Positions 3,109 to 40,145 of a stretch of DNA of 50,037 bases are shown here, one piece after another. The stretch covers positions 1 to 50,037 of the forward strand of contig JAUCBJ010000218.1 in NCBI GenBank assembly GCA_032718475.1. The letters run 5' to 3'. The position numbers and the translations under genes were made by a program. Position 1 is the first letter of the stretch. Each line of letters opens with the position of its first letter. The DNA is from Nemertoderma westbladi (lineage: Eukaryota; Animalia; Xenacoelomorpha). The notes beneath the pieces are model-generated. The model ran no database searches. It saw nothing but the letters and a program-made list of their open reading frames with translations, and was not told the DNA's origin.

Positions 3109-4057
3109 TTACGGGCAAACAGGGCAAAGCCCTATATCCTGCCCTATGCCCTGCCCTGTTTTATCCTTCTTCCCATCAGTGGGGTTGGAACCGGTACATT
3201 GGCCTATCACGGTGACGATGGAGTTGGTGCTGAGATCCTTCTTCTGGATGGTAACTGAAGGGCGAGGATTGGAGGCAGTAGCAGGGTCCCAGGCTTCTAT
3301 ATCCTTGATAGAGAACACTTCTAGGCTCTTCCCGTTGGAAAGAGCAACGCGAATTCTACCATCAAGTGACCACGCCGACCGCATCCCACCTTTTTCCCTG
3401 GCTAAATTCAGCAGTTGGGAACGTCGCTTCGTTAGGCTGTCGAAAACCGAGATTGCGGTTCCCTTGAGTTTCTTTCGGTTTATTAGGCCTATTGTTTTAT
3501 ATTTCGCGCGATAGTTAGAGAATTTTACGATAGATACCGGCATTGTATTCTCGGTAGGTGATTTTGTTGGTAAGTTATGACAGTTATCAATGTCAGCTAG
3601 TGTGAGGTTAGTTCCGAGTTTGGTGTTCAACAGATCGACGACGTACAAAGCGGGTGCGTCAATGTCCTTACCACTGCTCGGCAAACGAACACCACTGAGC
3701 ATGACACAGTTTTTCCGCGAATACTGTTCGAGGTTGTCGACGGCAACATCAGTCTTAGCCAGTCGATCACTGAGCTTTGCTAGGTTGTCCAGTGATTTAC
3801 CTAAAGCAGAGTGGACTTGTTGGATTTCGAGTTCCAACGCTAAATATATGTCTTGCGTTATTTTTTCCTTTGTAGAGAGATCGATTTCAGGGTCAGCCCT
3901 CAGCACTTTGTAGGCGATCGCGGATCTGACTATTTATAGAAGAACCTAGATTTTCCAGGGCATTTAGGATTTTCTCCTTTTCTAATTCCACTTCGCCCCA
4001 AACGGAATCGACTGAGTTACCAAGAACCTTGTAAGTATTGTCGCCAAGAGATGCCAT
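3109..4057 (-). pseudogene. LINE ORF1 (coiled coil + RRM-like), frameshifted near 3895
   Basis: Track ORF 3109-3906 has DNLEQYSRKNCVMLSGV, DIDNCH, IVKF, SLTKRR and AWSLDGRI, typical of CR1 ORF1. An ATG at 4057 opens MASLGDNTYKV...ELEKEKILNALENL in another frame. Confidence 0.75.
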
Positions 4058-11830: not shown

Positions 11831-14800
11831 CATTTTTGAACTTCATTTCCTCTCAGCGATGCACCTAATCCCAGCTCAAAAGGAATGAATCCTTTTACAA
11901 ATCCGCAGGCAGGCACACCAGGATCAACCCAGCACGGTGGTTTGGAGGGGAAAGCACCATGCACCACACAGACCCAAGGTTTTAACATTTCAGAAGATTG
12001 CCTCATTGGTGATGTAAATCCAGTCCATTCGACTTCCAGCACGCAAGGTATAGGTGTCCAAGCCCGTTCAAGATGCTCTGTATGCAAGAAAGATATTCTG
12101 GTAAATGGTAATGGTCACCTTCGCAGGCACAAAGAGAATTCTGGAGGTCCCTTGTGTCCTGGAGCAGGCAAGTTGGCTGACGTCCAGTGTGGAGATTATA
12201 GCAATTCGGAGGAGAAATCTCAGTCAGACGAGCAATTAGTTGGTCCCACATGCAGTGAAGGAAACATGAGAAAGCAGATAGTCCATTGTGCTAACTGTTC
12301 AGTTTGGTATCACCTCTCATGTGTCGGCCTCAGGAAGAAGGATTCAGAATCCCTACCACACTGGTTCTGTGGAACTTGCCTTGATCGACCTCGGACAATA
12401 CTACCAGATGTTGACCCCAGCTATAGTAAATACTTGGAAAATCTTGCATCTTATATTGCCATGCTGAATCAATCCATTCCTGTGTTGGCAAAGATTCCTA
12501 AAGGGGCTAGAATCATGGCTGCAGACGCACTGGCCCCTTTGCTCAAAGAAGCAATTGACAACCCTGTGCCAATAACCTGGGCCCGGCTCCTAGCATTCTC
12601 GTTTGGGGCGTTAGCAAAGCCGATTCCAGCTACAAACGACCATTTGCAACCCTCACTAACATCTAAAGTCAAGCAGCAAATAAGAGACTATATGGCGTCA
12701 CCCTGCCTTCCCAATCCTCGTGTTCCTCTGCACACTACACATCAGCAGCACCAACCATCAAATCTAGATGAAGCAGAACTCATTCGCAAGCGAGTTTCAG
12801 CCAAGTTCATGGATGGCGATGTCCGAGGCGCTGTAAGGATTATCACATCACAGGAGGGTTTTGCAGACCACAGTGAAGATACAATCAATGCCCTCAGGGA
12901 GAAGCACCCACCTGCCCCACTTGACCTTGATCTCCCACCACCCCCAGATGACACACTAGCAGGTCCAGTTATCACTACGAAGGAGGACGTCCTTGCCAGT
13001 ATCCAGTCATTCCCCCTTTCTTCTGCTGCTGGCCCCGATGGCCTTCGCCCAGGTCATCTCCGTGACATGGTCAGCAGAGGAACTGGAGCTGCTGGTGACA
13101 AGCTGCTCAGTGAATTGACTAGGCTCGCAAATACAGCACACCGTGGGGAAACCCCTAAATTTGCTGTGCCAATCTTCTTTGGGGCCTGTCTCTGCGCCCT
13201 TAACAAAAAGGGGGGAGGTCTGCGTCCAATTGCTGTCGGCAATACATTCCGGCGCTTGGTGACAAAAACTGGCATTAAACCCCTATCAGAAGTTCTTGGA
13301 GCTGAACTAAGGCCCACACAGCTAGGTTATGGAACCAAGGGTGGTTGTGAGGCAGCTGTGCATGCGACCCGGCAATATATCAATGGCACTAAGGAACAGA
13401 AGGTGGTACTGAAAATCGACATGAAGAATGCATTTAACAGTATGCGTCGTGATGTTTTCCTGAAGGCAGCTCGTGATCGTTTGCCAAGTATTTACCCCCT
13501 TGTGTGGCAGGCTTATTCCACACCTACAGTCCTTATTTTCGGAGATCACATCGAATCGGCCACTGGTATGCAACAGGGTGATCCTAGTGGCCCTCTTCTC
13601 TTCGCGGTGGGAGAGGAGCCTGTCACCAAACTTGTTGGTTCAGAGCTGAATATCTGGTTTCTTGACGATGGTACGGTAGGTGGTACTACAGAGAGTGTTC
13701 TTTCGGATGTCGTGGCAATAATACCAGAGCTAGCGAAGATTGGTCTAATAGTTAACGATGCAAAGTGTGAATTGATACTACTCAACCATACACCAGAAGC
13801 CGCTACTGAGACAATCCACAAGTTCAGTCAGCTCCTCCCTAATATTAGGGTCCTAAACAAGGTGGACCAGGTCCTTCTAGGAGCTCCCCTTACACGGGAT
13901 GCTATTGAACCAGCTATCCAATCAAAGCTCAAGTCTCTCGAGGTGATGGTTGATCGGCTGGTACATTTTGATGCACATCAAGGCTTCACCTTACTCAAGA
14001 ATTGTCTGGCAGTCCCCCGGCTACAGTACACTCTGCGCACATCACCCACATTCAACAACACTGGTGACTTGCAGGAATTTGATACAGTTGTCCAAGATGC
14101 CCTTTCTAGTATCACCAATGTTAACTTTCATGCAAAATCCAGTACCCAGGGATCACTACCAGTCAGTCTCGGGGGACTTGGGATCCGTAAGTTGGAAGAT
14201 CTGGCACTGCCTAGTTATATTTCCTCTCTTCATTCCACCGATATCCTCGTTAACTCCGTCCTCTCTAACACATTTGGACTGGAGCCATCGTGTGATTTGG
14301 CAGGAGCCGTCAAGGCATGGAGGGAGAAGTTCTCTTCAGTTGAGGAACCCAGTGGGGCAGCCAGGAATAACCAGAAAGCGTGGGACACTATCTCTGCGAC
14401 TATAACACAGAGAGACCTGTTTGCCAAAGCGGATCAGGTCGAAACAGCACGCCTGGCTGCAGCAGCGCAAGTGGAGAGTGGGCTTTGGCTTCATGCGAGC
14501 CCTATTCCATCTTTAGGGTCGAATTTGGATCCGGAAGCTCTTCGAATTGGTATAGCACAGAGAGTTGGTGCACCTATCTGCCATAAACACACCTGCAAGT
14601 GTGGCAAGGAAGTGGATATTCTTGGGCACCATGCACTGTCCTGCCGAAACAGCATGGGTAGGTTCCCACGTCATGCAGCTCTCAACAATGTGCTGAAACG
14701 TTCACTGAGCAGAGCTGGTCTACCATCTGTCCTGGAACCTACTGGGTTGGATAGGGGAGATGGGAAACGTCCTGATGGTATGACCATCTACCCCTACTCG

Positions 14801-15451
14801 AAAGGCCGGTGCCTGGTATGGGATGCTACATGTGTGGATACCTTTGCCCCATCCCACATCATTCGCTCTGCCATTGAGCCATCCTCAGCATCAGCAGCAG
14901 CGGAGGAGCTAAAGCGTGTGAAATACCGCAATTTGGGTCAGCAGTACCAATTCGAACCCCTGGCCTTCGAGACCACAGGAGTATTCGGTCCATCCACCAT
15001 CAGCGTGTTAAAAGATCTTGGCCGAAGACTCATAGCGGAGTCAGGAGACCCATGCGAGAGCTTGTGGCTGAAGCAACGCATCGGGATAGCCATAGTGAGG
15101 GGGAATGCCCTTTGTGTTCGGGGTTCAATCAGCGCTGTGGAATAGAGTTATTCTCGCCGAGGTAAAGGGAGTAGATCAAAGATTCGTCGAGGTAAAGGGA
15201 GTAGATCAAGGAGTCGTGGAGGAAAGGGGAAGAAGAAAGGAAGATGAAAAGAGAGGAAGATCGAAGGGGTGTGGGAAGAAAGGAGTGGGAAAGTCGATAA
15301 ATAATCAATTCGATGTTGCAGCTGGATGGAAGAAGTTGATGAGAGGAAAATAAACAGTTGGAATGTCATTACAGTACTTTAGGTTAATATGATTGTTTAT
15401 CTTGTCTGTAAATTCAAATATAATTTTTAAGAATATATTACTTCGGTTCGG
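11831..15451 (+). mobile_element. CRE-like non-LTR retrotransposon (RLE type), apparently full length
   Basis: Single long ORF, purine-rich 3' UTR, candidate 13-bp TSD atttttgaacacg at 11818-11830 and 15452-15464. Confidence 0.8.
11885..15145 (+). CDS. Zinc finger + PHD + reverse transcriptase + restriction-like endonuclease, 1086 aa
   Basis: CSVC..HLRRH finger; PHD (CANCSVWYHLSC..WFCGTC); RT motifs SAAGPDG, GGLRPIA, KIDMKNAFNS, GMQQGDP, FLDD; RLE motifs CKCG..GHHALSC, RH, RPDG..WD..EELKRVKY. Confidence 0.93.
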   Translation: MNPFTNPQAGTPGSTQHGGLEGKAPCTTQTQGFNISEDCLIGDVNPVHSTSSTQGIGVQARSRCSVCKKDILVNGNGHLRRHKENSGGPLCPGAGKLADVQCGDYSNSEEKSQSDEQLVGPTCSEGNMRKQIVHCANCSVWYHLSCVGLRKKDSESLPHWFCGTCLDRPRTILPDVDPSYSKYLENLASYIAMLNQSIPVLAKIPKGARIMAADALAPLLKEAIDNPVPITWARLLAFSFGALAKPIPATNDHLQPSLTSKVKQQIRDYMASPCLPNPRVPLHTTHQQHQPSNLDEAELIRKRVSAKFMDGDVRGAVRIITSQEGFADHSEDTINALREKHPPAPLDLDLPPPPDDTLAGPVITTKEDVLASIQSFPLSSAAGPDGLRPGHLRDMVSRGTGAAGDKLLSELTRLANTAHRGETPKFAVPIFFGACLCALNKKGGGLRPIAVGNTFRRLVTKTGIKPLSEVLGAELRPTQLGYGTKGGCEAAVHATRQYINGTKEQKVVLKIDMKNAFNSMRRDVFLKAARDRLPSIYPLVWQAYSTPTVLIFGDHIESATGMQQGDPSGPLLFAVGEEPVTKLVGSELNIWFLDDGTVGGTTESVLSDVVAIIPELAKIGLIVNDAKCELILLNHTPEAATETIHKFSQLLPNIRVLNKVDQVLLGAPLTRDAIEPAIQSKLKSLEVMVDRLVHFDAHQGFTLLKNCLAVPRLQYTLRTSPTFNNTGDLQEFDTVVQDALSSITNVNFHAKSSTQGSLPVSLGGLGIRKLEDLALPSYISSLHSTDILVNSVLSNTFGLEPSCDLAGAVKAWREKFSSVEEPSGAARNNQKAWDTISATITQRDLFAKADQVETARLAAAAQVESGLWLHASPIPSLGSNLDPEALRIGIAQRVGAPICHKHTCKCGKEVDILGHHALSCRNSMGRFPRHAALNNVLKRSLSRAGLPSVLEPTGLDRGDGKRPDGMTIYPYSKGRCLVWDATCVDTFAPSHIIRSAIEPSSASAAAEELKRVKYRNLGQQYQFEPLAFETTGVFGPSTISVLKDLGRRLIAESGDPCESLWLKQRIGIAIVRGNALCVRGSISAVE

Positions 15452-15955: not shown

Positions 15956-17146
15956 TTGTTTCCGTGCAAAATCTGTTCAAACTCACTAATACAAGGAAAA
16001 CAACCTGAAAGTCACATTTTTGAAGATGATACAAACAACCAATCACACCATACGCCAGTACTAACCACTTTCTATCTCCATAGGCTAGAAAATATAAATT
16101 ACGATGGCAGGTGGACCAAAACCTTGGGAAGGAAAGCTTACTTATTCAAAAATGCATCAATGAAGCAATTAGATTCCTACAAGAAAGATATTGAAGCCTC
16201 CATACAACCTTTGCTAGAAAACCACAATACTACTGAAGACAACACAATTGATACGGCAGCAGAATCTTTCATAAAGGCTATCTTGACATCTGCCAATAAA
16301 CATATCCCCTATATCACACCAAGAAGAAGAAAGAACTGGAAACCGCAACTATCTAAAAGTAGAAACGCAAGCACCACCAACACCAATAATCGAGAAACGG
16401 TAAACCCTGAAAACAAACTCAAGCAGATGCAGAAAACGAGAGAACTATCCATGCTACAACACAGGATATATCGAGAACAAGTCACTACTCTTACTCAAGC
16501 ATGTTCAACCAGCCCAAACACATTCTGGAACAAACTGAAAGAAAGAGATGCACACAACAGCCACCAAATGTCACCAGGCAATGCAAATAACCTATATGAC
16601 CACTACAAGAATTTCTATAATAACAACAATCGAAGCTTCTCAACTTCTGAACCGCATCCGAAGTTTCAAGCAGTACCTCATCATCAACAAAATAAAGATA
16701 ACCATAATGACTTTAACCTATTGAGTACAGAAGATATAAACGATGCAATTAAAAAACTGAATAAAGGTAAGGCTGCTGATTCAAACAACATCTCTGCGGA
16801 ACACCTATGTTATGGAAACTCCGAATCTATGTGTAATTTTATTGCTTTTCTCTTTAATGAAATGCGAAGCACGGGATACTTCCCAAACCTTATGTGTTTA
16901 GGACTATTGCTCCCACAGTTGAAGAGCTATGATCGACAAAAAAATCAAATGTCAAGTTACAGAGGTATTTCTATTATATCGATACTACTGAAATTGTGGG
17001 AGCACACAGTGGTGAAGGAACTAACATCTATTGACACAAGTTCCCTACAAATGGCATACAAGAAAGGGATGTGCAATGAAACACCATATCTGACAGCTTC
17101 AAAACTGATAGAATGGTTTAACAAGGGCTCATCTCCTTTACACGTA
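15956..17146 (+). pseudogene. 5' half of ORF2 of a 5'-truncated APE-type LINE, interrupted by the Polinton-like element
   Basis: SHHTPV (end of APE), FWNKLK, LNKGKAADSNNISAEHL, SYRGISIISILLKLWE, QMAYKKG. Homology ends at ...SSPLHV. Confidence 0.88.
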
Positions 17147-18095
17147 AGTAGTAGGGTCTTGGCCGGCTCTGCGACAGTTGGACCCAACTGACACCCATTG
17201 GGTGTCATATGACACCCAATTATCACCCTATGGGTGTCATTGGCGCCAGATTGTCTGGGTGACACCTCCCAATTAGGCTAATTAGACCCTAATTGACAGG
17301 TGTCATCAATTAATTAGTACAATTAAACCCTAACATGTGTCCTATTAGGGTTTAATTGATTATCCTAATTAATCAGACTGATTAGCGCCCTGACACACAA
17401 TGGGTCATCAGTGTTGTCCAACTGTCGCAGAGCCGGCTCAAGAGGGTGTCATAAGTGACACCACAGCTCTGTTATTTATTTATATTTAATTTTAATTAAT
17501 TATCTATATTTTATTTACCTTTATTTATTCATATTTAATTTTAAATTAATTATTCATTTGTACTTTATTTTAAATTAATTAATTGTATTACTTTTACTTT
17601 ATACATTGATTTCTATTTTTGATTAATTAGTTTTTATATTACTTACCGCTACTAAATGAGATCATTATTGGAAGCATCTAACCATAGACTTGCAGCCTTA
17701 TTTAGCCCTAGGGTATACAGCTCCCCTACTGGTAACTAATTACTCCAGACAGCTTTACCGTTGACCTTTGACCTTTGACCCCCAATTAGCTTTAACCAAG
17801 CAACAGCTTATTATTAATAGTTGTATCCAAGCGCCCCGCCCCCTCTGTTACACCTACCGGTAGTTGTAATACCGGTATGTTTCTTTTATTCATTAATACC
17901 TATTTATTTTTATTTAATTTTAATTAATTATTTGTATTCTATTCTATTTATTCGTATTTAATTTTAAATTAATTATTCATTTGTACTTTATTTTAAATTA
18001 ATTAATTGTATTAACTTTTACTTTATACATTGATTTCTATTTTAGATTAATTAGTTTTTATATTACCAATGAGATCACTATGACATAATGTCTAT
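17147..18095 (+). repeat. Left terminal inverted repeat (~950 bp)
   Basis: Reverse complement of 31501-32492 apart from a few substitutions and two small duplications in the right copy. Confidence 0.95.
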
Positions 18096-18594
18096 ATTTA
18101 ACTTTATAATTACCTATTGCATCCCCAGCTCACCACATTCCCGGCAACTATCAACTACGTTCATCGGCGGGGGACCCCTCCTCTGCCATCGCTTTTCATT
18201 AGTAGATACAACAGGCAGTGAATCTATACGTATACCCCCCAGGCAAATATAAATGAGCGATCCCGTCTGTTAGCAGTCCCTTCGATGACTCACTAATAAT
18301 CCCATCGCGGCCTTGACTACAGCAAATCCGTATATCGCCCAAGGCTAATGCTCAAGCGGCCCTCCATTGTTCCCACTATAGCCGGCGTCGCTTTGTCCCT
18401 TTCCTATATCCAGGCAGCCCGTATCATAACAATGAAGCGCCACTAATCACGCATTCCTCTCTACTAATCCCTTTCCTTTGCACCAGACCTGCTTCTGTTA
18501 TACAGCCAACTCAACATAATTAGTCGAGATGTCTACGGGGGTTTTCTAATATAGAATCAACACGAGAAGTTGCCTTGGTAACCGCTTTTGCGCG

Positions 18595-18720
18595 AACAGC
18601 CAATCAGCGGGCTTCATTTCTGCTGCTGCGCTCTGATTGGCTCATTTAAGAGACAAGGGCCTCCCCTACTAACCGAATTGCTATTTAATACATCCCCACT
18701 AATATATTACGTCATTATTT
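18595..18720 (+). promoter_or_regulatory. Putative Pol II promoter of the left transcription unit
   Basis: Inverted CCAAT pair (agccaatcag...ctgattggct), TATA-like tatttaat and CRE-like ttacgtca, just inside the left TIR. Confidence 0.45.
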
Positions 18721-18840
18721 CAATTGCAAGTTACGATTAACATCATTTACCATTATTTTGTTTTCGAATTTAATATTATTTATTTAAGAATATTTATTTA
18801 TTATCATCAGTCAACTATCCAGTTGTATAGTTATATTATT

Positions 18841-19855
18841 GTCATTTCGCCTCGTTATCGTTCATCGTCGACAACAAACTTTCCGCGTATCCGCCGCGTA
18901 ATATTTTTCCGATACCATTCCGTTCTATCGGTTGATAAACTCTCTCGTCGTCCACGTCAACCAACTTCCTCACGAACTTCCAAACTTCTGAACTTCATCT
19001 TTCCGTGAATATTTACTAACACCGTAAGTAAAATCTGCCTTCCACCATCTGACGGTACTATTATTGATGCCGGTAGCAAACAATTTACATTTAATGTCTA
19101 CCGGTATAACAGTATTGCAGTAGGCTCATTATTAATTACTGTCAGACTGTGGTGGTACCGATAGCCTAAACCGTGATCGAAGCATTCGATCAATAGGCTT
19201 ACATCCGCCTATCTGCTTACAGTATTTTTTATCTTTTTACAAATATTCATCTTATTTTTCTAGTATCATTTCGCCGCGTTATCGCTCATCGTCGACAACA
19301 AACTTTCCGCGTATTCGTCGCGTAATATTCCAATATTTCTAATTTCAGATACCATTCCGTTCTATCGGTTAATAAATTCTCTCGTTGTCCACGTCAACCA
19401 ACTTCTTCACGAACTTCCAATCTTCTTCTTTCCGTGAATATTTACTAACACCGTAAGTAAAATCTGCCGGTGTCTGTCATTTCGCCGCGTTATCGCTCAT
19501 CGTCGACAACAAACTTTCCGCATATCCGCCGCGTAATATTCCATTATTTCTAATTTCCGATACCATTCCGTTCTATCGGTAAATAAATTCTCTCGTTGTC
19601 CACGTCAACCAACTTCCTCACGAACTTCCAAACTTCTTCTTTCCGTGAATATTTACTAATACCGTAAGTAAAATCTGCCTTCCACCATCTGATGGTACTA
19701 TCGACGCCGCTAGCAAACAATTTACATTTAATGTCTACCGATACAACAGTATTACAGAAGGCTCATTATTAATTACTGTCAGACTGCGGTGGTACCGATA
19801 ACCTAAACCGTGATCGAAGCATTCGATCAATAGGCCTACATCTACCTATCTGCTT
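18841..19855 (+). repeat. Three copies of a ~190-bp unit, each ending in GTAAGT; copies 1 and 3 share a ~190-bp downstream block
   Basis: tcatttcgcc...ttccgtgaatatttactaa(c/t)accGTAAGTaaaatctgcc begins at ~18841, ~19266 and ~19477. Confidence 0.9.
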
Positions 19856-20380
19856 GTCTACCCAACTACCGATACCGCTTCATTCGAGTTAGCCTAGTGC
19901 CACTGTAGTAACGATATAGACCCTACTGAACAACAATGAATACTGCAGTTTTCACTATATATCCTACTGACTAACTGAGTTCTCACACAGCGATTAGCTA
20001 GGCCTATCGTTGATTTCTATTGGTTAACGCTACCGGTACGTCTGACTTCTGGCAGACTTTTCACTAGCACTACTGCATTGACTGACTGTTGACTGCTGTT
20101 TATAGACCCTCTTTCCACGAATAATAACTGCCATCGCTATTGTGTCTTGGCTATCGCCACTATCTAACCGCTGGTACACTAGCACTACTACACTAGATAC
20201 TGCCGACTGTCTGCTTTATGTTTCACTGACTGATTGCTACAATACAGCAATAGGCCTAACTGTACAAACACAGTATTGTTGCCTAGTAACCGATTAATAC
20301 CTACTGTTTTACTTTATTTTTAGCAAGTATACAGTATTTTTTATTTTTATAAATAATCTACATATTTTTCTAGATTCAAG

Positions 20381-23300
20381 ATGCCAAGATCAACCAATAA
20401 AGTCAGCTGCCCCATCTGCGACAAAGAGATGCGGAGTGATCATCTAAAATCTCATATTAAAATTCATTTCGCGCAATATAGATGCGACTGCTGCCCGACT
20501 TGGTCCTTGGAAAAGAAGACACTGGTTGGCCATCTTGTTTCGTGTCCTCAGGGGGGAACAGGATTTAGTTACGTAAACGAGCCAGCCGATTGCCGCTGCG
20601 GGGATTCGCTCACCCTATCATCCTTTACTGAGCATGAATGCTACTCTCGACTTTTTTCGCGGAAACGCAAAACTCCGACTACCTCCCACTCATCCCCCAT
20701 CAACTCTACTCCAGAACAAGTCGGCGGCGGCGGCTCCAATAATGAACCTTCAACTTCACGAGATTCTATTTCCCCAAACAATCCATTTCAACCACCCTCC
20801 AACGGAAGCGCACACGGACGACTGTTTACCTATAACAATGACCTCGCAGAAACAAGACTCGACGCTGAATTAACATTAAACGAAAATTTTCCACACATTC
20901 AAGAACACGTTAGTAGCCATTTACGTAGTGCCATGGGAACTTTTTTAAGAGTCTGGCTTACAATCAATATCGTAATGGAGCGTGAAACCAGCGAGGGATT
21001 TCAAATTGAATCGTTCTGTTTTAAATCTAGCGGTAACAATAATCAAATTCTGAATAATAGCGACTTTAATAACTGGTTTTCCGGCGCCGTCAATCGTATC
21101 GATCAACTGTTAAGCGTGTTTCTCTGCCTCGGCTCGGGTTGGCGCATAATAGCCATCGAGCGAATAACTATTGAGATTGCGCGTTCCCAACGCAACCCCT
21201 ATTTAAAGGGTCAAGGCTTCAATAATTCTAAATTATTATTAAATAAAAAATGTACCGTAAGCGTAGACTGCCCGCTGGGGGAATGCTTTAAATATGCAGT
21301 ATTAGCCGCCGCAAATTATAAGAAAATTGATAGAAAACAAAATAATATTAGTAGAATTTCAACGTTTACTCCTTTCCTAAACATGTTTGATTTTTCCAAT
21401 TTAAGTTTTCCGGTTTAAGTAACTGGTATTCCCCAGTTTCTGAAAGCCAACCCTATATACTGCATAAACCTTCTTTATTGGAGTAATACGGAAGAACTCT
21501 CCATTTTAAGTCAACCAGATAGCGCGCACTGTTCCGGTAAAACTGTACTAAACTTATTATTTATCGAAGCCACAACCAAAAACCCTGCCCACTATGTAGC
21601 TATTACTAACATAGATAGATTAATAAATACTAAAGCTACTTCTACCGGCAACAAGACGCACTGCGAACGCTGTCTCAGAGCCTTTTACACTGACAAATCA
21701 TTGGGAGAACATCGAGAGCGCTGCTATACGGGTAAACGCCAGCTCGAGTATATGCCCGAAAATCTCTTGGTTAAATTTGACAGGTACGATAAGACTCTAT
21801 CCCCACCTTTCTGTATATACGCCGACATTGAAACTATTCTAGAACCTACAAACAATATTAAACTCCCACAGAAACATATAGCTAGCGCGGCAGCCTTTTA
21901 TACAGTACCAAATCAGAAATTAATTAACCCTCCTAAAACAGATGCTCAAATTTTCCGCGACGATGGCAGTAACCACGTAATGCGCGACTTTCTAACCGCT
22001 ATGGAAAGTCATTGTAGGGAGTTATACGATTGGTCCATTTCTAGTACAAACACGCACGTTCCCATGCAACTCACTACTAGCCAACAAACTGACTTTAATA
22101 ACGCTACACAATGCTACGTCTGCAACTGTAATTTAACCCCTGATTCTCATAATTTAAACCTCAATGACAATCTCAGCACCAAAGTCCGCGATCATGATCA
22201 TTATAGCGGGGAGTATCGAGGAGCTGCTTGCGTCAGCTGCAACAGGAAACTTTCCCTAAAACGGAATAATTTTTATATTATATTTCATAACTTGAGGAAA
22301 TTCGATATGCATTTACTACTAAAAGAAGGAATGACCGATAGTTCTAGAACACACTGGAAAATGACTATAATACCAAAAAACACCGAAACTTATATTCACC
22401 TTAAAGTTAGCTTCCCAATCGATCCGAGTACCCCAACAGCCAACACTAAAGAAAGTATCTCCATTAATTTTCTAGATTCCTATCAATTTATGACTGCCAG
22501 CCTAGATAATCTTAGTAGTTATCTCACTAAAAATAATAGTAACCTAGCAACAGCCATACCCCATACACTAGCTCAAATGACCCAACTCTATCCCAACATT
22601 AGCGATAACACAATAAAAAACAAGGGTGTATTCCCATATTCCTACATTCAAAATATTTCAAACCTACACGAAACTACACTCCCCCCAATAGAAAGCTTCT
22701 ATAATGATCTCAAAATGGAACAATGTAGCGCAGAAAACTATCAGCGCGCGCTTACTACTTGGGATGAATTAAACTGCGCAACAATCTTCGACTATATGAT
22801 TGGCTATTTGGTTCTAGACGTTACCCTATTGGCTGATACTTTCGAGCAGTTCCGATCCCTCTGTCTTACTAATTATGGACTCGAGCCCGTAATGTACTTC
22901 ACTGCCCCTGGATTAACTTACGACGCGGCGCTGAAATTCACGCAATCAGAAATTCAATTACTATCAGACGCTTCCATCTACTCGGACTTTGAAACAAATA
23001 TTAGGGGTGGTCTAGTATTCTTGAATACACATTCCGTAGACGCAAATATTCCCGATAAACCCGACTATGACTCCAGTCTCCCCGAGAAATATCTAATTCC
23101 CATCGATGCGAATAACCTTTACGGCTGCGCCCTGAGCCAGAAACTTCCCTACGCTAATATTAAACTCGTAACTACCCCCATAGACCTAGCTACAGTAGAT
23201 GCAAGCGGGGACACTGGTTATTATTGCATAGTTGATCTACATTACCCGAATGAAATTCATGATTTGACCGCCGATCTGCCTCTAGGAGCGGAGAAGATGT

Positions 23301-24433
23301 CAGTCCCTAAATCCTTTCTTAGCGAATACATGGAAGATCTTTGGGAGCATTACAATCTCACCGATACGGCTACCTGTAGACCATACAACGATACCTGTAC
23401 TAAGCTACTACTACATCAGTTTAATAAGGTTGAATACGGTATCCATATTAAGCTACTTCAGCTCTATTTGAAGCTCGGTCTTAAACTTACACAAGTTCAC
23501 AGGGTCTACTCTTTTTCACAAAAATATATTTTCAAGGACTACATTAGTTTTAATACGAATAAAAGACAGTCGGCAAATAACCCATTCGAGGTCCTATTTT
23601 ATAAGTTGATGAACTATGCATTATATGGGAAATGCCTCCAAAAGGTTAGAGACCGCGTTTCTTTCAGGTTATGCAATAGCGACGAACAATGCGATTTGCT
23701 CTTAGCCAAGCCCAACCACGAATCGTTTGTTGTCTTTACCCCCAACTTGAGTGGTCATACTTTCACTAAAGAGGCTGTTTGCCTAAATCAGGGCGTGTTC
23801 ATCGGTTGCACTATACTAGATCTATCTAAGCTACAGATGTACGACCTATTTTACAACAAACTGAAGCCTCTAGAACAAAAACTGGGTTGCCAGATTCGCT
23901 GTCTAGCCGGTGACACGGATTCTCTAATGCTAAGCGTAACTAATACACCACAGCTAACCTTTCTACGGGCAATGTTTGAGGGTGGTTTCCTAGATACTTC
24001 CAACTACAGTACAACACATCCACTCTATACCATTAAACACAAAGCGGCTCTCGGCTTCATAAAAGATGAGAGCTGCGGTTTGCAGTATAAACAGTGGGTT
24101 TTCCTTAAACCAAAGGTCTACAGTTTTCAATCCTACGATGCCCCAATCAAGAAAACCGCCAAAGGTGTATCTAGATCGGTTGTCGCTAAGCAACTAACAC
24201 ACGAGGATTATGCAGACTGTTTTGAAAACGAGGCAATGCTCTTCCGCTATAACTCTACCCTCACTTCTAGAAAGCATCAAATTTTTACTGGTCATGTCTA
24301 TAAGAAGGCACTAACGCTCTGGGATACGAAATCATATTGGAGTAGTAAATATAGCAGCAAACCATACGGACACTATAGCACTAAGCTTGTTAGACCGGCG
24401 AAACGAGTAGTAATCCCCCCTACTAGAATTTAA
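20381..24433 (+). pseudogene. Protein-primed family B DNA polymerase with N-terminal C2H2 finger and EndoVII-like insertion, ~1350 codons, one in-frame TAA at 21416-21418
   Basis: Track ORFs 20381-21418 and 21701-24433 share a frame and 21419-21700 is open (VTGIPQFLKAN...HYVAITNIDRL..CERCL). Motifs YADIE, FHNLRKFD, FLDS, KGVFPY, LDVTLLAD, DANNLYG, KLMNYALYGK, GDTDS, PKVY; RDHDHYSGEYRGAACVSCN. Confidence 0.95.
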
Positions 24434-24447
24434 TTTAATTTTTCTAG

Positions 24448-24963
24448 AATAAGAAATTGAACAACAAAATAGAAATAACCAATAAACAGTTTACCGGAAA
24501 AAACATTGCCAAATTTGAACTAGATAAAATTTCACAGCAAATTATAGGTCAAAGTTGCTTAAAACCAAACATGTTTATCTACAAAGGTGACGATTCAACT
24601 TTAATGCTATTTCCCAGCGGCGCAGTAACAATTGTAAGCCTTTGCAATAATTTAGCTAGTGAATTGCTTTATTTAAAACAAACTATCGGGATGCAATTAC
24701 AAAATTTGAAACTTAATACCGAAACACGAACTATTATTTTTCCAAGTGTTAATTTTAAATTATTAATGAAAAAATGTGGACATCATACAATTAATAATAA
24801 AGCAATATTTATTAGCTATACCCCCGAATTATTTTGTGCGATTAGAATATATATAGGATGTGCATATTTCAGTGTATTTCATAGTAATAAAATCGTTTCC
24901 ATGTGTCCAGCCGGTGAATTCCCTGAATCATTATCTATTTTACAAACTTTATTATTAAATTAG
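24448..24963 (+). CDS. Divergent TATA-binding-protein (TBP)-like protein, ~170 aa, no 5' ATG (possibly spliced)
   Basis: Two-repeat layout and size of the TBP core. STLMLFPSGAVTI resembles TTALIFSSGKMVC; ISYTPELFCAIRI..FSVFHSNKIV resembles SYEPELFPGLIY..LIFVSGKVV. Preceded by tttttctag. Confidence 0.65.
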   Translation, partial: NKKLNNKIEITNKQFTGKNIAKFELDKISQQIIGQSCLKPNMFIYKGDDSTLMLFPSGAVTIVSLCNNLASELLYLKQTIGMQLQNLKLNTETRTIIFPSVNFKLLMKKCGHHTINNKAIFISYTPELFCAIRIYIGCAYFSVFHSNKIVSMCPAGEFPESLSILQTLLLN

Positions 24964-27501
24964 TTTATTTACTATGGTATACATGAAAGTTTACTATATT
25001 ATTTATTTTGTGTTGGTTTTTATTTTTCCGTGAGTAGGGTTTGAATCCGTGACCATCCGTGTTACCTACTTTTTATAATTGCATTAGTAGGACTCGAACC
25101 CTGGTTTTTCCTATTTTGTGTTGGATTTATAATGGACGCGAGTAGGGATTGAACCCGTGACCTTCTGTTTTTCCTAATTTATGTTTAGTTTAGTTACTCT
25201 AGTTATTCTATGTTTACTTTTTATATTTTCATGATTAGGATTCAAACCCTGGTTTAACTTATTTCGTGTTGGATTTATAATGGTCGCGAGTAGGGATTGA
25301 ACCTATGACCTCCTGTTTATTTTCCATAAAACGGGATACGAGTAGGGATTGAGCCCGTGACCTTCTGTTTTTCCTATTTTATGTTTAGTTTAGGTACTCT
25401 AGTTATTCTATGTTTAACTTATTTTGTGTTGGTTTTATATTGGTCGCGAGTAGGGATTGAACCCGTGACCATCTGTTTATCCTATTTTGTGTTTACTTTT
25501 TATATTTTTCTATAAAACGGGATACGAGAAGGGGTCGAACATGTGACCACCTGTTTATCCTATTTTATGTTTAGTTTAGGTACTCTAGTTATTCTATGTT
25601 TAACTTATTTTGTGTTGGTTTTATATTGGTCGCGAGTAGGGATTGAACCCGTAACAATCTGTTTATCATATTTTGTGTTTAGTTTAGTTACTCTAGTTAT
25701 TCTATGTTTACTTTTTATATTTTCATGATTAGGATTCGAACCCTGGTTTAACTTATTTCGTGTTGGATTTATAATGGTCGCGAGTAGGGATTGAACCTAT
25801 GACCTCCTGTTTATTTTCCATAAAACGGGATACGAGTAGGGATTGAGCCCGTGACCTTCTGTTTTTCCTATTTTGTGTTTAGTTTAGGTACTCTAGTTAT
25901 TCTATGTTTACTTTTTATATTTTTTTCATAAAACGGACACGAGTAGGGATTGAACCTACAGTATGACCATCTGTTTATCCTATTTTATGTTTAGTTTAGT
26001 TACTCTATGTTAAAGTGAATTTTCACATTATATTTGTGTTAAATTATAAATTTATGTTACAATTATTATTTATATTATAAAAAACAGTTAAAGTAAATTT
26101 TCATATTATATTTATGTTAAATTATAAATTTATGTTACAATTATTATTTATATTATAAAAAACAGAAATATTCGAGTTATATTGCATTATATATTTTACA
26201 TTGAAGTGGATTACTTTAGATGTTGGGGGGATCTGGTTTGCGAGGGATATTTGAATGGTGAGTATAACTATCCTTGAGAGTTAGTGTGACGTTATCTCAC
26301 CATGGATGGGCTTTACCACTGTACTCGCATCTGCTCCCTCATTGGCTGCTCGATGCCTCAGATTAAGGGTCTAAGGCCTTCAAGCTGGTCATTTGCTTAG
26401 TTCTCTAATTGGCGGGATGTGAGTTTGGACCCTAGAAGAGCATTATTCTTTTTCCTAGCTCTTGGATAACTCTAGCATACACTCTAGCTTTGACTCTCCC
26501 GGCTATAGTTATAGTATGCAACCTTGGGAGTTAATGTGAGTACATATTTCAGTGTATTTCATAGTAATAAAATCGTTTCCATGTGTCCTACCGGTGAATT
26601 CCCCGGATCATTATCTATTTTACAAACTATATTATTAAATTAGTTTATTTACTATGGTATACATGAAAGTTTACTATATTATTTATTTTGTGTTGGTTTT
26701 TATTTTTCCCTGAGTAGGGTTTGAATCCGTGAGCATCCGTGTTACCTACTTTTTATAATTGCATTAGTAGGACTCGAACCCTGGTTTAACTTATTTTGGG
26801 TTGGTTTTATAATGGACGCGAGTAGGGATTGAACCCGTGACCTCCTGTTTATTTTCCATAAAACGGGATACGACTAGGGATCGAACCTGTGACCATCTGT
26901 TTATTCTATTTTGTGTTTAGTTTAGGTACTCTAGTTATTCTATGTTTAACTTATTTTGTGTTGGTTTTATATTGGTCGCGAGTAGGGATTGAACCCGTGA
27001 CCATCTGTTTATCCTATTTTGTGTTTAGTTTAGTTACTCTATGTTAAAGTGAATTTTCATATTATATTTATGTTAAATTATAAATTTATGCTACAATTAT
27101 TATTTATATTATAAAAACAGAAATATTCGAGTTATATTGCATTATATATTTTACATTGAAGTGGATTACTTTAGATGTTGGGGGGAATCTGGTTTGCGAG
27201 GGATATTTGAACGGTGAGTATAACTATCCTTGAGAGCTAGTGCAACGCTACCTCACTATGGATGGGCTTTACCACTGTACTCGCATCTGCTCTCTCATTG
27301 GCTGCTCGATGCCTCCGATTAAGGGTCTAAGGTCTTCAAGCTGGTCATTTGCTTAGTTCTCTAATTGGAGGGATGTGAGTTTGGACCCTAGAAGAGCATT
27401 ATTCTTTTTCCTAGCTCTTGGATAACTCTAGCATACACTCTAGCTTTGACTCTCCCGCCGGCTATAGTTATAGTATGCAACCTTGGGAGTTAATGTGAGT
27501 A
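24863..27501. repeat. Tandem segmental duplication (24863-26542; shorter copy 26543-27501) containing B-box-like repeat arrays
   Basis: The last ~100 bp of the TBP-like ORF recur at 26543. Block ~26000-26542 recurs at ~27030-27501. gagtagggattgaacccgtgacc variants occur throughout. Confidence 0.9.
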
Positions 27502-29436
27502 AAGACCAAGAGATTAGACTTCAGGCTCCCTCTATTGGTTCATTCTTCTTAACTTTATAAAATAACTCAACCCGTATTTAAAGTTTTAAAAATTATGACT
27601 TAGTCGACTAATTTTCCAAAGTATATTATAAAAACATATAATTTCTTGAATAAATAGACCTAATAGTAATAAATAATGTGGGGGTAAATACATTTATAAT
27701 TCTAATATAATTATTAAGGATAAATAGTCCTAATACTAATATAATTATGTAATAGTAAGCAAAATTTTTATGCGCAACCATCAGAGATTATTTGGATATA
27801 AAAGATCACACAGCAGGAGGCTAACTTGCTGGGATCGACAAAGGCTTTGTGTGCGGTGTGTCGCTATGTCTTATATCGGGTGGATGAGAGAGCCCCCTCC
27901 GGCGCAACATTGTGAACATGGGCTATATTGCTAGAGAGAGAACTACATATAAGACCATGGCCGGCCCTCATGCAAATTTAGCGGCGCCAAGGCTAACGGG
28001 GCACCTCGAAGACAGTCTGGCTATAGTAGAGTAGAATGGATATACGAGTCCATAGCTAAAATATATCTGCCATGGAGCCTTCGCGTAGCACTATGCTCAC
28101 CAAATATATTTATAATTCTCTATCCGCGAAATTTTCAGAAATTTTAAATTTTTGCCGTCGCTTCGCGGAAAAAATAAAAAGTAAACACAAAATAGGATAT
28201 ACAGATTCTCACAGATTCGATTCCCTATCCCCGACCAGGGTCATTATGACCCTCCCCGGTGTTTGTACAACATTTTATAGCCCGGTAGTATTATGATTAA
28301 AGCTACTAATCTAAAACATAACAAGTGCAATTATCCTATCTGTTCCAACTCAGTCTCACTACTTTAGATAATATACTATAATAATAGTAATAGCAGCTGC
28401 TTTTAATTTCGCGATGAAATATTGTCAGCAAACGAAATATAGCGAATACATCATAGATAGAATTTTAAATTTTGCAGTCGCATGGAGTGATAACCCTTAG
28501 GTGAAAGCTAAATTTGCTCTACTTTAATCAAATGGGGCATTAAAGCTATGAGTATATTTTCCTCTACATCCTCCCTCGATCTTACGCAAATCTGGGTAAA
28601 AGGCAGTTGAAGGGCTATCATTCCCATCATATGCGGTCCTCCCTTTAATGTTTCATTGTTCTATTCATAGTCGCCTTTAAGAATTTCTCGGGAAAATAAG
28701 GATGAGGGGCTATCACTATCAACCCATGCGGCCCTCCCTTTCATGATTTCATTGAACTATCCATAGTACGAACAATCAAACCAAAGCCTTTGAATATCCT
28801 CGCGGCTTATCAGCGGCGCCATGGCTAACGGCTTAATATTAACAGTGAAGCATCTAAAAGACAGAGTGTCTATGATAGGGCAGAACAGTATACTTACAGC
28901 CTAGAGGTGGTCGCCCTGAAAACTTTGCTCGCCATCAATACATACAAAGCATCGCTTGATGGAAAGAGTAATAGGGTGGATATTTTCATTTTGGTGAATA
29001 TAATTTATAGCATTAATCACAAAAACGCTAAATAATGTATTTTAAATAAATTCAACTCTGATAAACAACTTGCATATCGAGTTTGTAAAGAATTCATAGG
29101 GATTGGCTGTTTATTTAGGGGTTAACATTCAAATTGATTACGAAGAAGCAGTAGGGGTCATTAATGGTATGCTGAGACTCACTTATTTCATGGCTCGCTC
29201 TCATAGTATAGATTAACTAGTAGAGAAAAATGAAAAATAAGTGGTTAAACATCTTATATTTTTTAAACATTATGGGGAAACAAGAATAAATAATTTACCG
29301 ACAACATCAATATTAAATAATATAACAACAACAGATAAATAATTTACCAACAACATTAATAATAAATAATATAAGAACATCAACAATAACAAAAGATATA
29401 GTCAGAACAGTTTTCAATAAATAGAGACTGTTTATA

Positions 29437-31146
29437 TTAATAGGGTTGCTGGCCTCCGAGAATAACTGGTTTAACCCTTTTAGGGTCCGATACTATTAAT
29501 GGTTGAGATAATTTTCTCTTTAATAGATTGTTGAGATAGCCTTTTCTTGGGGGGTGAAATAGATTAAGGTGTGTTTGCTGTGGGAGAAAGATGCCTTCTC
29601 TGAGAGAACGTTTTAGTAATTCGAAAAGGCGCGCGATGGTAAAGTCGTTGGACAGGGTGATAGTGTTGGTATTTTTCGTATTGGTGAATATAATTTCTGT
29701 TGGTTTGTTCTCGATATGAATGTAAGGACTGAGATAGTAGTGAGAGTTGGGTGGGTTGGTTATATTTATCGTGAGAAAATCGCTGCCCCTAATATTGAGA
29801 CCGTTGATGAACTGAAAAGTGGTATTCTCTTCGTCTTTCATTAAAATGGGCCAGATACCAACATATTTTTCGGATTTGAACTTATAGATAAAGGCTGCGA
29901 TACTGCTATTTATGAGATAGCGCTGGTGATTGGGGATCGTAATCTGCTTCGGTTTGAAAGCAAATTGTATAGCCATAGCCTTGAATCTGATTAGAGCCTC
30001 GCGCGCTTGAATCGTGTTAGCTATAGTAAAGGATTCGTTAAATTTTCTCTCGGTTATCTGTAAATCAATTTCTGAATCACTGATACAACTTTGTATCGAT
30101 ATTCGCTCGGAAATGTTGTCTTTGTATACGTTAAGTTCATCGTAGCAGACACATTCACTATCCTCGATGGTTGAATCGAACCATTTCAATTCGCCGACCT
30201 CGGTTGGTGTAAGAAGAATCATGCCCCTAGAAGAAACAATAGCCTTTCCATCGTCAACCTCGTAGCCATTGGTGATCGCTAAATTGCGCTCGTTCCGAAT
30301 ATTTGTAACAAACCCAAAAGTGCAATAGTCAAAAGCAACCCAATTTCCCGGTTTTAGGACAAGGTGAGTAGTAGGATTAATAAAAGGGCGACAGATGTTT
30401 ACATATTGTTGAAATAAATTGGCGCAGGTGACGGAAAATGTGATCCATGAACTGTTTACAGTGTCTTCCAGCTTTATTAACTCGAGTGGATTCACTGGGT
30501 TAATACTTCCATAGGTGCCAACTCTATAATTGATTCCAAAGTAATAGGAGACTTTATTGGCAAAAAAGCATGTGAGCTCATTCAATTTCTCGCCGAAAGT
30601 GAGAACATCCTTATCGAAAAGTTTAAAGAAACGAGTCTCCTCTTCCTCGGTCGGAGTCGACGAGTTCCAGATGAGAAGAAGAATCGAGTTTGCGATACTA
30701 TGAAAATCAAATAAGCGATCATCGGAGAAGAAGGAGGTTACGAGAGTGGTTAAACCCAGTAGACGATTTGCCACATCTTGGTTGATGTTTTCTCGAATAA
30801 AATCGACTATACTAGTTGGAATCGTAAACGTTTCGGGCGAAGTAGTTAGATTGAACGTTATTTTGTTGTCCCTTTTTAAAAGTTTGAAACCGTGGTTGGA
30901 GGAATGAAGTTTGTTATCATCGAGGGTTTGATATTGTCCATCGTGAAGTTCGTAGCAGGCGCGGAAAATAAAGTGCGCGTAGTTTGCCGGAATCGGGATG
31001 GGTTGGTTTAAGGTTGTATTTATCGTTAACGGGAAGAGTTTGTTCGCCGGATCGAAATATAGACCAAACGAGTTGTCTTGTAGCATAAACTGATTTTCGT
31101 TGCAAACCAGATCGTTGATTGAATAGCTGATTTCTGAATGTGCCAT
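29437..31146 (-). CDS. Uncharacterised 569-aa protein, possible divergent PC4-like ssDNA-binding repeats, basic NLS-like C-terminus
   Basis: Intact ATG-initiated ORF convergent with polB; non-repetitive protein-like composition; KRK..PKRVK at the C-terminus. The PC4 resemblance is by eye only. Confidence 0.75.
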   Translation of the reverse strand: MAHSEISYSINDLVCNENQFMLQDNSFGLYFDPANKLFPLTINTTLNQPIPIPANYAHFIFRACYELHDGQYQTLDDNKLHSSNHGFKLLKRDNKITFNLTTSPETFTIPTSIVDFIRENINQDVANRLLGLTTLVTSFFSDDRLFDFHSIANSILLLIWNSSTPTEEEETRFFKLFDKDVLTFGEKLNELTCFFANKVSYYFGINYRVGTYGSINPVNPLELIKLEDTVNSSWITFSVTCANLFQQYVNICRPFINPTTHLVLKPGNWVAFDYCTFGFVTNIRNERNLAITNGYEVDDGKAIVSSRGMILLTPTEVGELKWFDSTIEDSECVCYDELNVYKDNISERISIQSCISDSEIDLQITERKFNESFTIANTIQAREALIRFKAMAIQFAFKPKQITIPNHQRYLINSSIAAFIYKFKSEKYVGIWPILMKDEENTTFQFINGLNIRGSDFLTINITNPPNSHYYLSPYIHIENKPTEIIFTNTKNTNTITLSNDFTIARLFELLKRSLREGIFLPQQTHLNLFHPPRKGYLNNLLKRKLSQPLIVSDPKRVKPVILGGQQPY

Positions 31147-31259
31147 TGTGATTGTGTACCGGTAACTCGTTTAGGAAATAAAAATAAATAAATACTTTTA
31201 CGAAAATAATTAAAACTTTTCAGGAAAACAAAGAGACAATGATTGGGAATGTGGTGAAC

Positions 31260-31395
31260 GGGGGCTATTATAGAGGGGGCTAGAATGGGTTAGCCAATCA
31301 GGGAACAGGAGGGAGAAAAGACTGTATAATTAAACCAATCAGAGAGCAGCTTTGATGACGTCACATCAGGCGAGATAATGATTGCCCAATGTTAT
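31260..31395 (-). promoter_or_regulatory. Putative promoter of the 569-aa ORF
   Basis: CCAAT boxes at ~31294, ~31335 and ~31386; perfect CRE TGACGTCA at 31356-31363; TATAAT-like site at ~31267-31272, ~120 bp upstream of the ATG. Confidence 0.5.
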
Positions 31396-31500
31396 TCAAT
31401 GGTAGGCAGAGTGGCGCCATTGAATAACGAAGACAAAGGGGCCGCGAGAGGAAAGATTATAAAGTTAACGATAAGGGATCTATAAACCATAGAGCTAAAA

Positions 31501-32492
31501 ATAGACATTATGTCATAGTGATCTCATTGGTAATATAAAAACTAATTAATCTAAAATAGAAATCAATGTATAAAGTAAAAGTTAATACAATTAATTAATT
31601 TAAAATAAAGTACAAATGAATAATTAATTTAAAATTAAATACGAATAAATAGAATAGAATACAAATAATTAATTAAAATTAAATAAAAATAAATAGGTAT
31701 TAATGAATAAAAGAAACATACCGGTATTACAACTATCGGTGGGTGTAACATACCGGTATTACAACTACCGGTAGGTGTAACAGAGGGGGCGGGGCGCTTG
31801 GATACAACTATTATTAATAGGCTGTTGCTTGGTTAAAGCTAATTGGGGGTCAAAGGTCAAAGGTCAACGATAAAGCTGTCTGGAGTAATTAGTTACCAGT
31901 AGGGGAGCTGTATACCCTAGGGCTAAATAAGGCTGCAAGTCTATGGTTAGATGCTTCCAATAATGATCTCATTTAGTAGCGGTAAGTAATATAAAAACTA
32001 ATTAATCTAAAAATAGAAATCAATGTATAAAGTAAAAGTAATACAATTAATTAATTTAAAATAAAGTACAAATGAATAATTAATTTAAAATTAAATATGA
32101 ATAAATAAAGGTAAATAAAATATAGATAATTAATTAAAATTAAATATAAATAAATAACAGAGCTGTGGTGTCACTTATGACACCCTCTTGAGCCGGCTCT
32201 GCGACAGTTGGACAACACTGATGACCCATTGTGTGTCAGGGCGCTAATCAGTCTGATTAATTAGGATAATCAATTAAACCCTAATAGGACACATGTTAGG
32301 GTTTAATTGTACTAATTAATTGATGACACCTGTCAATTAGGGTCTAATTAGCCTAATTGGGAGGTGTCACCCAGACAGTCTGGCGCCAATGACACCCAAT
32401 GACACCCATAGGGTGATAATTGGGTGTCATATGACACCCAATGGGTGTCAGTTGGGTCCAACTGTCGCAGAGCCGGCCAAGACCCTACTACT
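31501..32492 (-). repeat. Right terminal inverted repeat (~990 bp)
   Basis: atagacattatgtcatagtgatctcattgg...gccggccaagaccctactact mirrors the left end. Confidence 0.95.
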
Positions 32493-32498
32493 CACGTA

Positions 32499-33689
32499 GT
32501 ATCTTTAGACCTAACATCAGCATTCGACTGCATCAACCATGAAATCCTGTTCGACAAATTGTCCAAGACCAACCTGTCTCCTAGTTTAATTATCCTAATA
32601 CAATCATACTATGATAAGTCCACTGCTATTGTACAGATCGGCAACTATAGACATAAGGAAGCTATAGCATTATCCCGAGGGGTACGTCAAGGTGGAATAT
32701 TATCAGCCTGGATGTTCAATTTTTTCTTGACAGACTTATTTACCACTTTAGAAACAGAACACCTAGGTCCACATATAGGATCCCAGGCATACCCGGCAAT
32801 CGGGTTTGCAGACGACATTCTCTTAATGGCAAACCTGAAAACAGACATTCAGAGAATAATGCAAATCTGCGTTAACTTTTTCCAAGACACACAGCTAACA
32901 CTGAACACCAGAAAATGCCATTATATAGTTTGCACTCCATCAGGAAAAAATACACTTGAATCACTCCAGATAGAATCTGGAAAATATATTATTCAAGAAG
33001 AAAAATTATCATACCTTGGCCTACCATTGCCATCTACAGGGAGAAACCTACACAATCATCTAACCAAGAAATGCTGGATCAACGTGTCAAAAGCAAAGCT
33101 CAGAGGATTATCTGCCCATGATGTACCACTGAACATTTCTTCTTTCATCTGGAAAACCATCTGTTTACCATCTATAATGTACGGTGCCTCAAATCTTGAC
33201 AAGCATTTCTTTGAACAAATGAAAATTACACTTCAGAAGGCAATGAGATCACTCCTTGGCGTTGGAAGCTATATACCGAACAACGTCCTAATGGACCTTT
33301 ATGACAGCCAATCTTTTGAACAAATGATGACCTTTTCAAAATGCTGCGCAATCTATAACCTGTTCAACTGCAACAACGATAAAGTTACACATCTGTTTAC
33401 AACCATTTTAACACATCATGTCGCAAAAACCTATCATGATAATCTGATGGATGATTACAACCTTTTATCGTGGCAAGAAGGTCTCCCGACACTCACTAGT
33501 ATTGCTACCTCACAATACTGTGTGAAGAAGGTGTTAAAAGGAGCAAAGGTCAGAACTAAAGCTGGAAACATCCCCCTAACCTTCAAAGAAAAGTTTCATA
33601 GCTCTTATTTCCGATCAATCCTAAACAACTGCAATAATGACCATACATCCAAACATACTACAATATTATCGTTCTTTGGGCTAGACTAA
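32499..33689 (+). pseudogene. 3' half of the same LINE ORF2 (RT core to C-terminus)
   Basis: VSLDLTSAFD, GVRQGGILS, FADD, YLG. In frame with the 5' half once the insert and one TSD copy are removed. (AT)n tail at ~33775-33789. Confidence 0.9.
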
Positions 33690-37725: not shown

Positions 37726-37773
37726 TTGTAGGACCATCAATTATTTCACTTTACTTATAATGTTGACTCTTAA

Positions 37774-39927: not shown

Positions 39928-40145
39928 TTAAGTTGTCAATGGCATGTAATGCATACCAGGACAGGCCCAATATTTCCAATTGGTGTTTTGTTTCAGCCTA
40001 TGGAAGTAATTTCTGGGCTTCTAATTGGCTGCCCCCGGGTTTAATAGGGTTAAAAGCCATTTTCATATAAAAAAAACATAATAAAAAAATACGTCAAAAA
40101 GTGGGTACCCTTAACATTTACCCATTTAAGAAGTTTCTGACATTA

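Follow-up and report, generated by a model that had tools for sequence, protein, structure and literature searches.

Does a Polinton-type element in the genome of Nemertoderma westbladi carry a gene for a TBP, and what would such a gene do in an element of a group that, to our knowledge, has no RNA polymerase? The question is raised by an open frame in a 50,037-nucleotide stretch of contig JAUCBJ010000218.1 (the window, to which all coordinates refer unless another locus is named). A first-pass annotation had described this frame as a captured, fast-evolving TBP, not belonging to the core Polinton genes, which could redirect host polymerase to the promoters of the element or act as a decoy. 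We find that the frame at 24448-24963 is indeed a real, divergent TBP, located in an element that is not an intact Polinton, and that this copy has probably decayed or fallen silent.

The TBP frame and its start

The two-lobed TBP-fold frame (24448-24963, plus strand) begins 14 nt after the stop codon of pPolB and thus directly downstream of it, as annotated. The three sequence motifs on which the annotation rested are all present, LMLFPSGAVTI at residues 52-62, SYTPELF at 123-129 and FSVFHSNKIV at 141-150. The length of ~170 residues, in contrast, corresponds to the 171 codons from stop to stop: there is no ATG in the first 41 codons, and the first one, at 24571, yields a product of 130 residues. 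In both profile and hhalign comparisons the homology to TBPs starts at residue 9-10, before this ATG, and the 130-aa product would be expected to lack the first strand, the helix and the conserved asparagine of the saddle. The absence of a start codon had been overlooked, as had two further points (see below): pPolB is broken, and the genes that a promoter factor would serve have been lost.

Directly 5' of the frame lies a putative splice-acceptor-like word, TTTTCTAG (24440-24447, plus strand), recognized by its letters only, and the same word, as TTTCTAG, is also found at 20367, just 5' of the pPolB ATG. None of 20,000 base shuffles remained open across the TBP frame. Its base composition is unlike that of the other two long frames of the element (GC3 0.23 compared to 0.42-0.45). 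A partial duplicate of its 3' end is located at 26540-26643 (plus strand); the 33 codons compared have five differences, two synonymous and three non-synonymous, and are too short for a dN/dS estimate.

Identification as a TBP

Searched on its own, the frame is nearly invisible. Pfam returned no family at E-values up to 10, so that the gathering score of PF00352 was not reached; NCBIfam and the PDB sequences gave no match, PHROGs a single one with an E-value of 0.29, and single-sequence searches of protein sets of 5.8 billion and 1.84 billion entries none. Scans of viral contigs with the frame also found nothing. We gathered 105 loci with related polymerases and compared 1319 ORFs from these with the TBP frame. 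The best two, from loci L028 and L039, matched at E-values of 1e-4 and 5e-4, the next at 0.22, and both are Pfam TBPs above the PF00352 threshold. A profile of the three sequences retrieved 121 proteins, with PF00352 in 116 of the 120 listed, and the resulting family profile matches 35 TBP sequences in the PDB with E-values from 1e-32 to 1e-24.

Against a profile of 88 relatives that excluded the query, the TBP frame scored 45.2 bits (E 5.8e-13) among 1119 frames of the window; the second-best frame reached 5.1 bits, and 2000 shuffles at most 9.6. An hhalign comparison gave 97.8% over 150 columns. In the ESM Atlas, 30 of 30 matches were TBPs, the best three at 0.95, with low ESM recognition (1761). 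A structure model computed with a 101-row alignment had a pLDDT of 83, whereas the single-sequence model was unusable (pLDDT 32.6). In Foldseek searches with the former, all 38 rows listed among ranks 1-44 were TBPs, and VIA gave Z-scores of 12.0-14.3 for 38 TBP entries and 7.8 for the next fold. Since the model was guided by an alignment of TBPs, this fold evidence is partly circular, and the profile score provides the cleaner test. Both approaches agree with the annotated identity.

Compared to cellular TBPs (PF00352; yeast 1ytb and 1ngm, human 1cdw), the model forms the saddle over 158-165 aligned residues with an rmsd of 3.3-4.6, and the ELF motif and both lobe phenylalanines are retained. 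However, sequence identity is only 13-18%, the N-terminal extension is missing, the first stirrup is shortened and has no phenylalanine, and the first stirrup glutamate and the following proline are changed.

Conserved and altered residues

We matched residues to yeast TBP by reading printed alignments. Three of the four intercalating phenylalanines are kept (F55, F129 and F144) and the one in the first stirrup is absent, both here and throughout the family; the saddle appears in the alignment-guided model, with an incomplete set of phenylalanines. The four phenylalanines are tied to DNA bending in passages of PMC12529657. N12, the first of the DNA-contacting asparagines of the minor groove, is also kept, as in 94 of the 94 relatives with a residue at this site. 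For the second asparagine the register is ambiguous, and most relatives have a serine.

Passages of PMC7221094 tie two stirrup glutamates to TFIIB and give their conservation in viral TBPs as ~40%. Of 100 relatives, 99 retain the pair, while the protein of the window has only the second of these acidic TFIIB-contacting residues of the C-terminal stirrup. The conservation of YEPELF in the family is inflated, because the search that collected the relatives used a profile including the query, together with shared short words, and so favours this motif. Overall, the window protein is changed at six of 17 near-invariant sites, the most of all 101 rows, 95 of which are changed at none or one. The six include the first stirrup glutamate, three glycines and the proline after ELF; passages of PMC12529657 link this proline to a preferred T as the first base of the TATA word.

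A reduced Polinton-derived element

The TBP frame is part of a Polinton/adintovirus-derived element of 15,346 bp (17147-32492) with AGTAGTAGGG termini. The element is flanked by the 6-bp target site duplication CACGTA (17141-17146 and 32493-32498, both plus strand) and bounded by TIRs of 961 bp on the left (17147-18107, plus strand) and 1004 bp on the right (31489-32492, minus strand), which contain long A/T-rich repeats. They differ by seven substitutions in 961 aligned sites, a divergence of 0.7%, and by three indels. The insertion site is a LINE-type reverse transcriptase frame, found in two pieces at 15956-17146 and 32493-33689 (plus strand), the right one of which matches RVT_1.

Three long coding regions make up the element. 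The first, pPolB (20381-24433, plus strand), has 757 relatives, among them the named PolB of a coral adintovirus (E 3.9e-110), and weak matches to a zinc finger and to endonuclease VII below the Pfam cut-off. Its frame is interrupted at 21416-21418 by a stop codon in phase; one such stop agrees with the divergence of the TIRs, from which 0.6-1.3 are expected. The second is the TBP frame, and the third, the only other long frame, is an intact orphan of 569 residues (29437-31146, minus strand), for which Pfam, NCBIfam, PHROGs, PDB and the ESM Atlas returned nothing significant. Upstream of the orphan are two CCAAT-type words and one TATA-like word. Upstream of pPolB, at 18840-19855, units of 200-390 bp are duplicated or triplicated and contain short frames of protein-like character as well as three words resembling a splice donor, GTAAGT; they may be what is left of a gene with introns.

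Long TIRs and a 6-bp target site duplication are features of autonomous Polintons and adintoviruses. A retrovirus-like integrase is described as a defining Polinton feature in PMC5499653. Of the autonomous features, the element has the TIRs, the duplication and a broken PolB; no integrase ORF and no virion module were found. In tblastn searches with 1319 frames from the 105 related loci, only pPolB and the TBP frame were matched within the element, and no trace of integrase, ATPase, capsid or protease was detected. The query frames included integrases, ATPases and frames that we take to be capsid and protease, Pfam having given no label for these two. The missing integrase and virion genes make the element Polinton-derived and non-autonomous: either it relied on an integrase supplied in trans or it lost the genes after insertion.

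Family and origin of the TBP

Sequence comparison places the TBP frame, as a highly divergent member, in a family of ~120 short, two-lobed TBPs carried by Polintons. It scores up to 32.6 bits against members of this family, but 8.3 and 2.7 bits against the more canonical viral-type TBPs of loci L107 and L106. In a quick tree of 48 of 125 rows, computed without cellular TBPs, it groups with the short-TBP family with a support of 95, on an end branch of 3.43 compared to a median of 0.3. This branch bears out the annotated fast evolution, and its length leaves the position in the tree unsure.

In a FastTree analysis of pPolB, covering the 27 loci of at least 10 kb and 11 proteins and leaving out 78 shorter loci, L028 and L039 were the only two of the 27 long loci to fall into the clade of the window pPolB (support 100); the remaining nine rows of the clade are proteins without genomic context. 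A search through 12,053 frames from the 105 loci turned up no TBP besides those of L028 and L039. Among the loci without one are seven short ones of 3.4-8.9 kb whose pPolB scores are high, but these loci are partial. In the two relatives the TBP gene follows pPolB at a distance of 1.0 kb (L039) and 5.5 kb (L028). With TBPs in two of 27 long related loci, the gene is not a core Polinton gene, as the first-pass annotation had stated; its confinement, among these loci, to one pPolB clade gives it the look of a lineage gene rather than of a one-off capture. The scores against the Polinton-linked short family and this confinement speak against reading the gene as recently captured from the host.

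Locus L107 contains a near-canonical TBP with the phenylalanine of the first stirrup (2764-3351 of that locus, plus strand), on a Polinton-like fragment with an A32-type ATPase that sits in a bacterial MAG, probably as a contaminant. Such a protein points either to capture on a second occasion or to an ancestral state.

Candidate promoter words in relatives

In L028, the word CATAAAC precedes seven of 12 genes by 11-123 nt, with 12 copies on the sense strand and none on the antisense strand; the genes so preceded include ATPase and integrase and exclude TBP and pPolB. In L039, whose TBP falls into a different subclade from that of L028, TTAAGC precedes seven of 14 genes, including five of the seven in the minus-strand module. 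When all 27 loci were tested uniformly, only L028 (CATAAA) and L039 (TTAAGC) had a shared 6-mer that was reached in at most one of 100 dinucleotide shuffles; two loci without TBP came to two of 100. In plain base shuffles, the 6-mer of L028 was reached in 64 of 200 and that of L039 in 13 of 200, while the 7-mer of L028 was reached in none of 200. As the pattern comes from L028 and L039, two elements that are related and differ in their word, and the threshold was set post hoc, the link between TBP and promoter words is suggestive only. It lends indirect support to the proposal that host polymerase is redirected to promoters of the element. The three genes of the window element have no common upstream word, and neither CATAAAC nor TTAAGC occurs before them.

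A TATA and B-box array downstream of the TBP

Downstream of the TBP frame lies a tandem-derived array (24990-27050, minus strand) that holds 12 of the 13 B-box-like words of the form GGTTCRANNCC in the window, for which shuffles gave a mean of 0.43. The interval 24960-27150 has 16 TATAAA words. In five units of the array the box is followed by a run of four T at a distance of 12-13 nt, and in three it is preceded by TATAAA at a distance of 84 nt; the tandem amplification limits the independence of these words. To our eye the units resemble the variable loop and T arm of a tRNA. An assignment of the array to tRNA or another known RNA was rejected, as there is no tRNA gene and no significant Rfam match. 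The 23-nt unit of the array was not found in the viral contigs, and other loci have at most two B-box-like words each.

A 63-bp inverted match connects the interior of the element (28238-28300) to flanking host DNA (37770-37831) and lies beside a single copy of the array unit in reverse orientation.

What the TBP may do

The explanation we favour, with moderate confidence, is drawn mainly from comparison with more complete relatives. In these, the short Polinton TBP would bind an element-specific TATA-like word before the virion and integration genes and, so bound, recruit host TFIIB and RNA polymerase II, acting as a late-gene promoter factor with a word of its own. DNA binding, recognition of the word, recruitment of TFIIB and late timing are all steps that we infer. 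For the copy in the window, the loss of the target genes, the missing start, the low GC3 and the absence of either word before its genes together indicate that it is probably silent. Against silence speaks the TBP frame itself, which has acquired neither a stop nor a frameshift despite its very long branch. Moreover, six changes at near-invariant sites are too many for a TIR divergence of 0.7%, and must thus have arisen before the insertion, possibly under selection. A rewired, active TBP gene in the window element is therefore possible.

Such a gene is the subject of one competing explanation, which we regard as unlikely: the TBP of a non-autonomous lineage may still be produced, by way of a spliced leader or by initiation at a non-AUG codon, and serve new targets, such as the promoter of the orphan or the TATA and B-box array as read by Pol III. 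The acceptor-like TTTTCTAG, which abuts the open frame just where it begins, would fit this, as would its counterpart before the pPolB ATG and similar pyrimidine-AG words before genes of L028 and L039, but no leader exon was identified. The 171 open codons, unmatched in 20,000 shuffles, and the retention of 11 of the 17 invariant sites along a branch of 3.4 substitutions point in the same direction. The 12 B-box-like words and 16 TATAAA directly downstream would offer targets, yet the array consists of few tandem-amplified units with no clear A box by eye, its folding is inconsistent (z-scores of +1.5, -2.7 and -0.4), it has neither a tRNA nor a significant Rfam match, and no other locus has more than two such words. 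The decoy proposed in the first-pass annotation, a dominant-negative TBP that soaks up host TFIIB or Brf1 or competes with the TBP of a helper element, seems to us somewhat less probable again. It would agree with the missing stirrup phenylalanine in the first lobe of the whole family, with the replacement in this copy of the first stirrup glutamate, of the proline that follows ELF and of three glycines, and with an element that has no virion genes and hence little to activate. However, the TBP accompanies a common upstream word in the relatives, which fits activation, and the retention of DNA-contacting phenylalanines and asparagine alongside a changed TFIIB-contacting residue is the reverse of what a sink for TFIIB would need.

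The TBP fold might also be used in protein-primed replication, on the A/T-rich terminal repeats or on single-stranded DNA. This would explain why the TBP was retained beside pPolB after the loss of the virion genes, directly behind it in an element of three long frames with long A/T-rich repeats in its TIRs, and a divergent Giardia TBP that lacks key phenylalanines is reported to prefer single-stranded DNA (PMC12209930). We nevertheless consider it very unlikely, as three phenylalanines are retained here, the TBPs of the nearest relatives lie 1.0 kb (L039) and 5.5 kb (L028) after pPolB, and 25 of the 27 long pPolB loci show no TBP. Finally, the window element alone may recently have picked up a TBP or TRF paralogue from its host that is now degenerating, which would account for the deviating base composition of the frame; the unsure place of its long branch leaves room for such an origin, and the canonical-like TBP of L107 indicates that capture may have happened more than once. 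We can give this hardly any credence in view of the scores, which reach 32.6 bits with short TBPs of the family, compared to 8.3 for L107 and 2.7 for L106, the shortened first stirrup with the KP motif that the window protein has in common with this family, and the identity of only 13-18% to solved cellular TBPs.

The favoured late-gene factor can be extended to a more specific scenario, which we offer as a tentative and rather doubtful one: a single clade of animal Polintons would possess a one-protein late switch, in which the TBP diverges together with its own word (CATAAAC in one branch and TTAAGC in another) and keeps its contact to host TFIIB, and a capsid-less satellite lineage, of which the window element would be an example, would retain a rewired, splice-started TBP that serves the neighbouring TATA and B-box array of Pol III units.

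Relation to known systems

A TBP gene in adintovirus-like viruses has already been named. The legend of Fig. 5 in Starrett et al. 2021 (PMC8502044) labels a TBP-like gene in MELD viruses, which have an adintovirus-like PolB, and figure legends of the preprint 10.1101/697771 also name it. MELD viruses resemble the element described here in combining a TBP-like gene with a Polinton-type PolB in a midsize linear element. To judge from these labels, the present case differs in that the TBP can be linked to a single pPolB clade, to ~120 family members and to candidate promoter words, and in that the copy of the window is without integrase and virion genes. An analysis of the MELD gene was not found in the parts of PMC8502044 covered, nor TBP or TATA in one of its supplementary files, and the parts of PMC12220804 covered contain nothing relevant to TBPs in such elements. 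In the literature searched, with RepBase, bioRxiv supplements and subscription papers outside its scope, only the Starrett paper and the preprint link a TBP to such elements, and we found none on the timing of Polinton or adintovirus virion genes or on the role of their TBP. What we describe is thus a divergent variant of a known gene, probably in a defective copy and with a conjectured function.

Viral TBPs with a comparable role have been proposed elsewhere. In beta- and gamma-herpesviruses, passages of PMC12529657 propose a TBP fold for the recognition of a non-canonical TATA-like late word (TATTWAA), in the case of KSHV by ORF24, a multi-domain protein with four phenylalanines and without the TFIIB-contacting acidic residues, which works in a viral complex of six proteins. 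The Polinton family, in contrast, consists of a bare core of ~170 residues with three phenylalanines and with the TFIIB-contacting acidic residues kept. TBPs of large dsDNA viruses (passages of PMC7221094; BFVD matches; L106) are likewise two-lobed, with conserved DNA-contacting phenylalanines and diverged regulatory surfaces. The same passages state that these viruses mostly encode their own TFIIB; by inspection, we noticed no TFIIB-like ORF in L028 or L039. The stirrup glutamates also set the groups apart, with ~40% conservation in the large viruses and 99 of 100 in the Polinton family.

If the favoured explanation is true, a bare 170-aa TBP and an element-specific word would form a very simple viral late-gene switch, compared to the six-protein complex of herpesviruses or the TBP-TFIIB pairs of giant viruses. 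The family would also provide natural TBP variants with altered promoter specificity, testable by swapping words between relatives. The copy in the window, which is probably dead, mainly illustrates the survival of a TBP gene in a reduced, non-autonomous lineage.

Other features of the window

Outside the element, non-LTR retroelements are represented by a PHD-endonuclease frame at 873-2555 (minus strand) and an open PHD-RT frame of 1086 residues at 11885-15145 (plus strand). The stretches 40033-42100 and 43600-45900 consist of a 31-bp satellite, present in 60 copies or more, and of further minisatellites of low complexity, which give rise to spurious ORFs. At 7109-9454 (plus strand), a single frame of 781 residues encodes a B-Raf-like kinase with RBD, C1 and kinase domains, which matches human B-Raf with an E-value of 3e-178 and points to an animal host; having no introns in its coding region, it is either a retrocopy or the gene of an intron-poor animal host.
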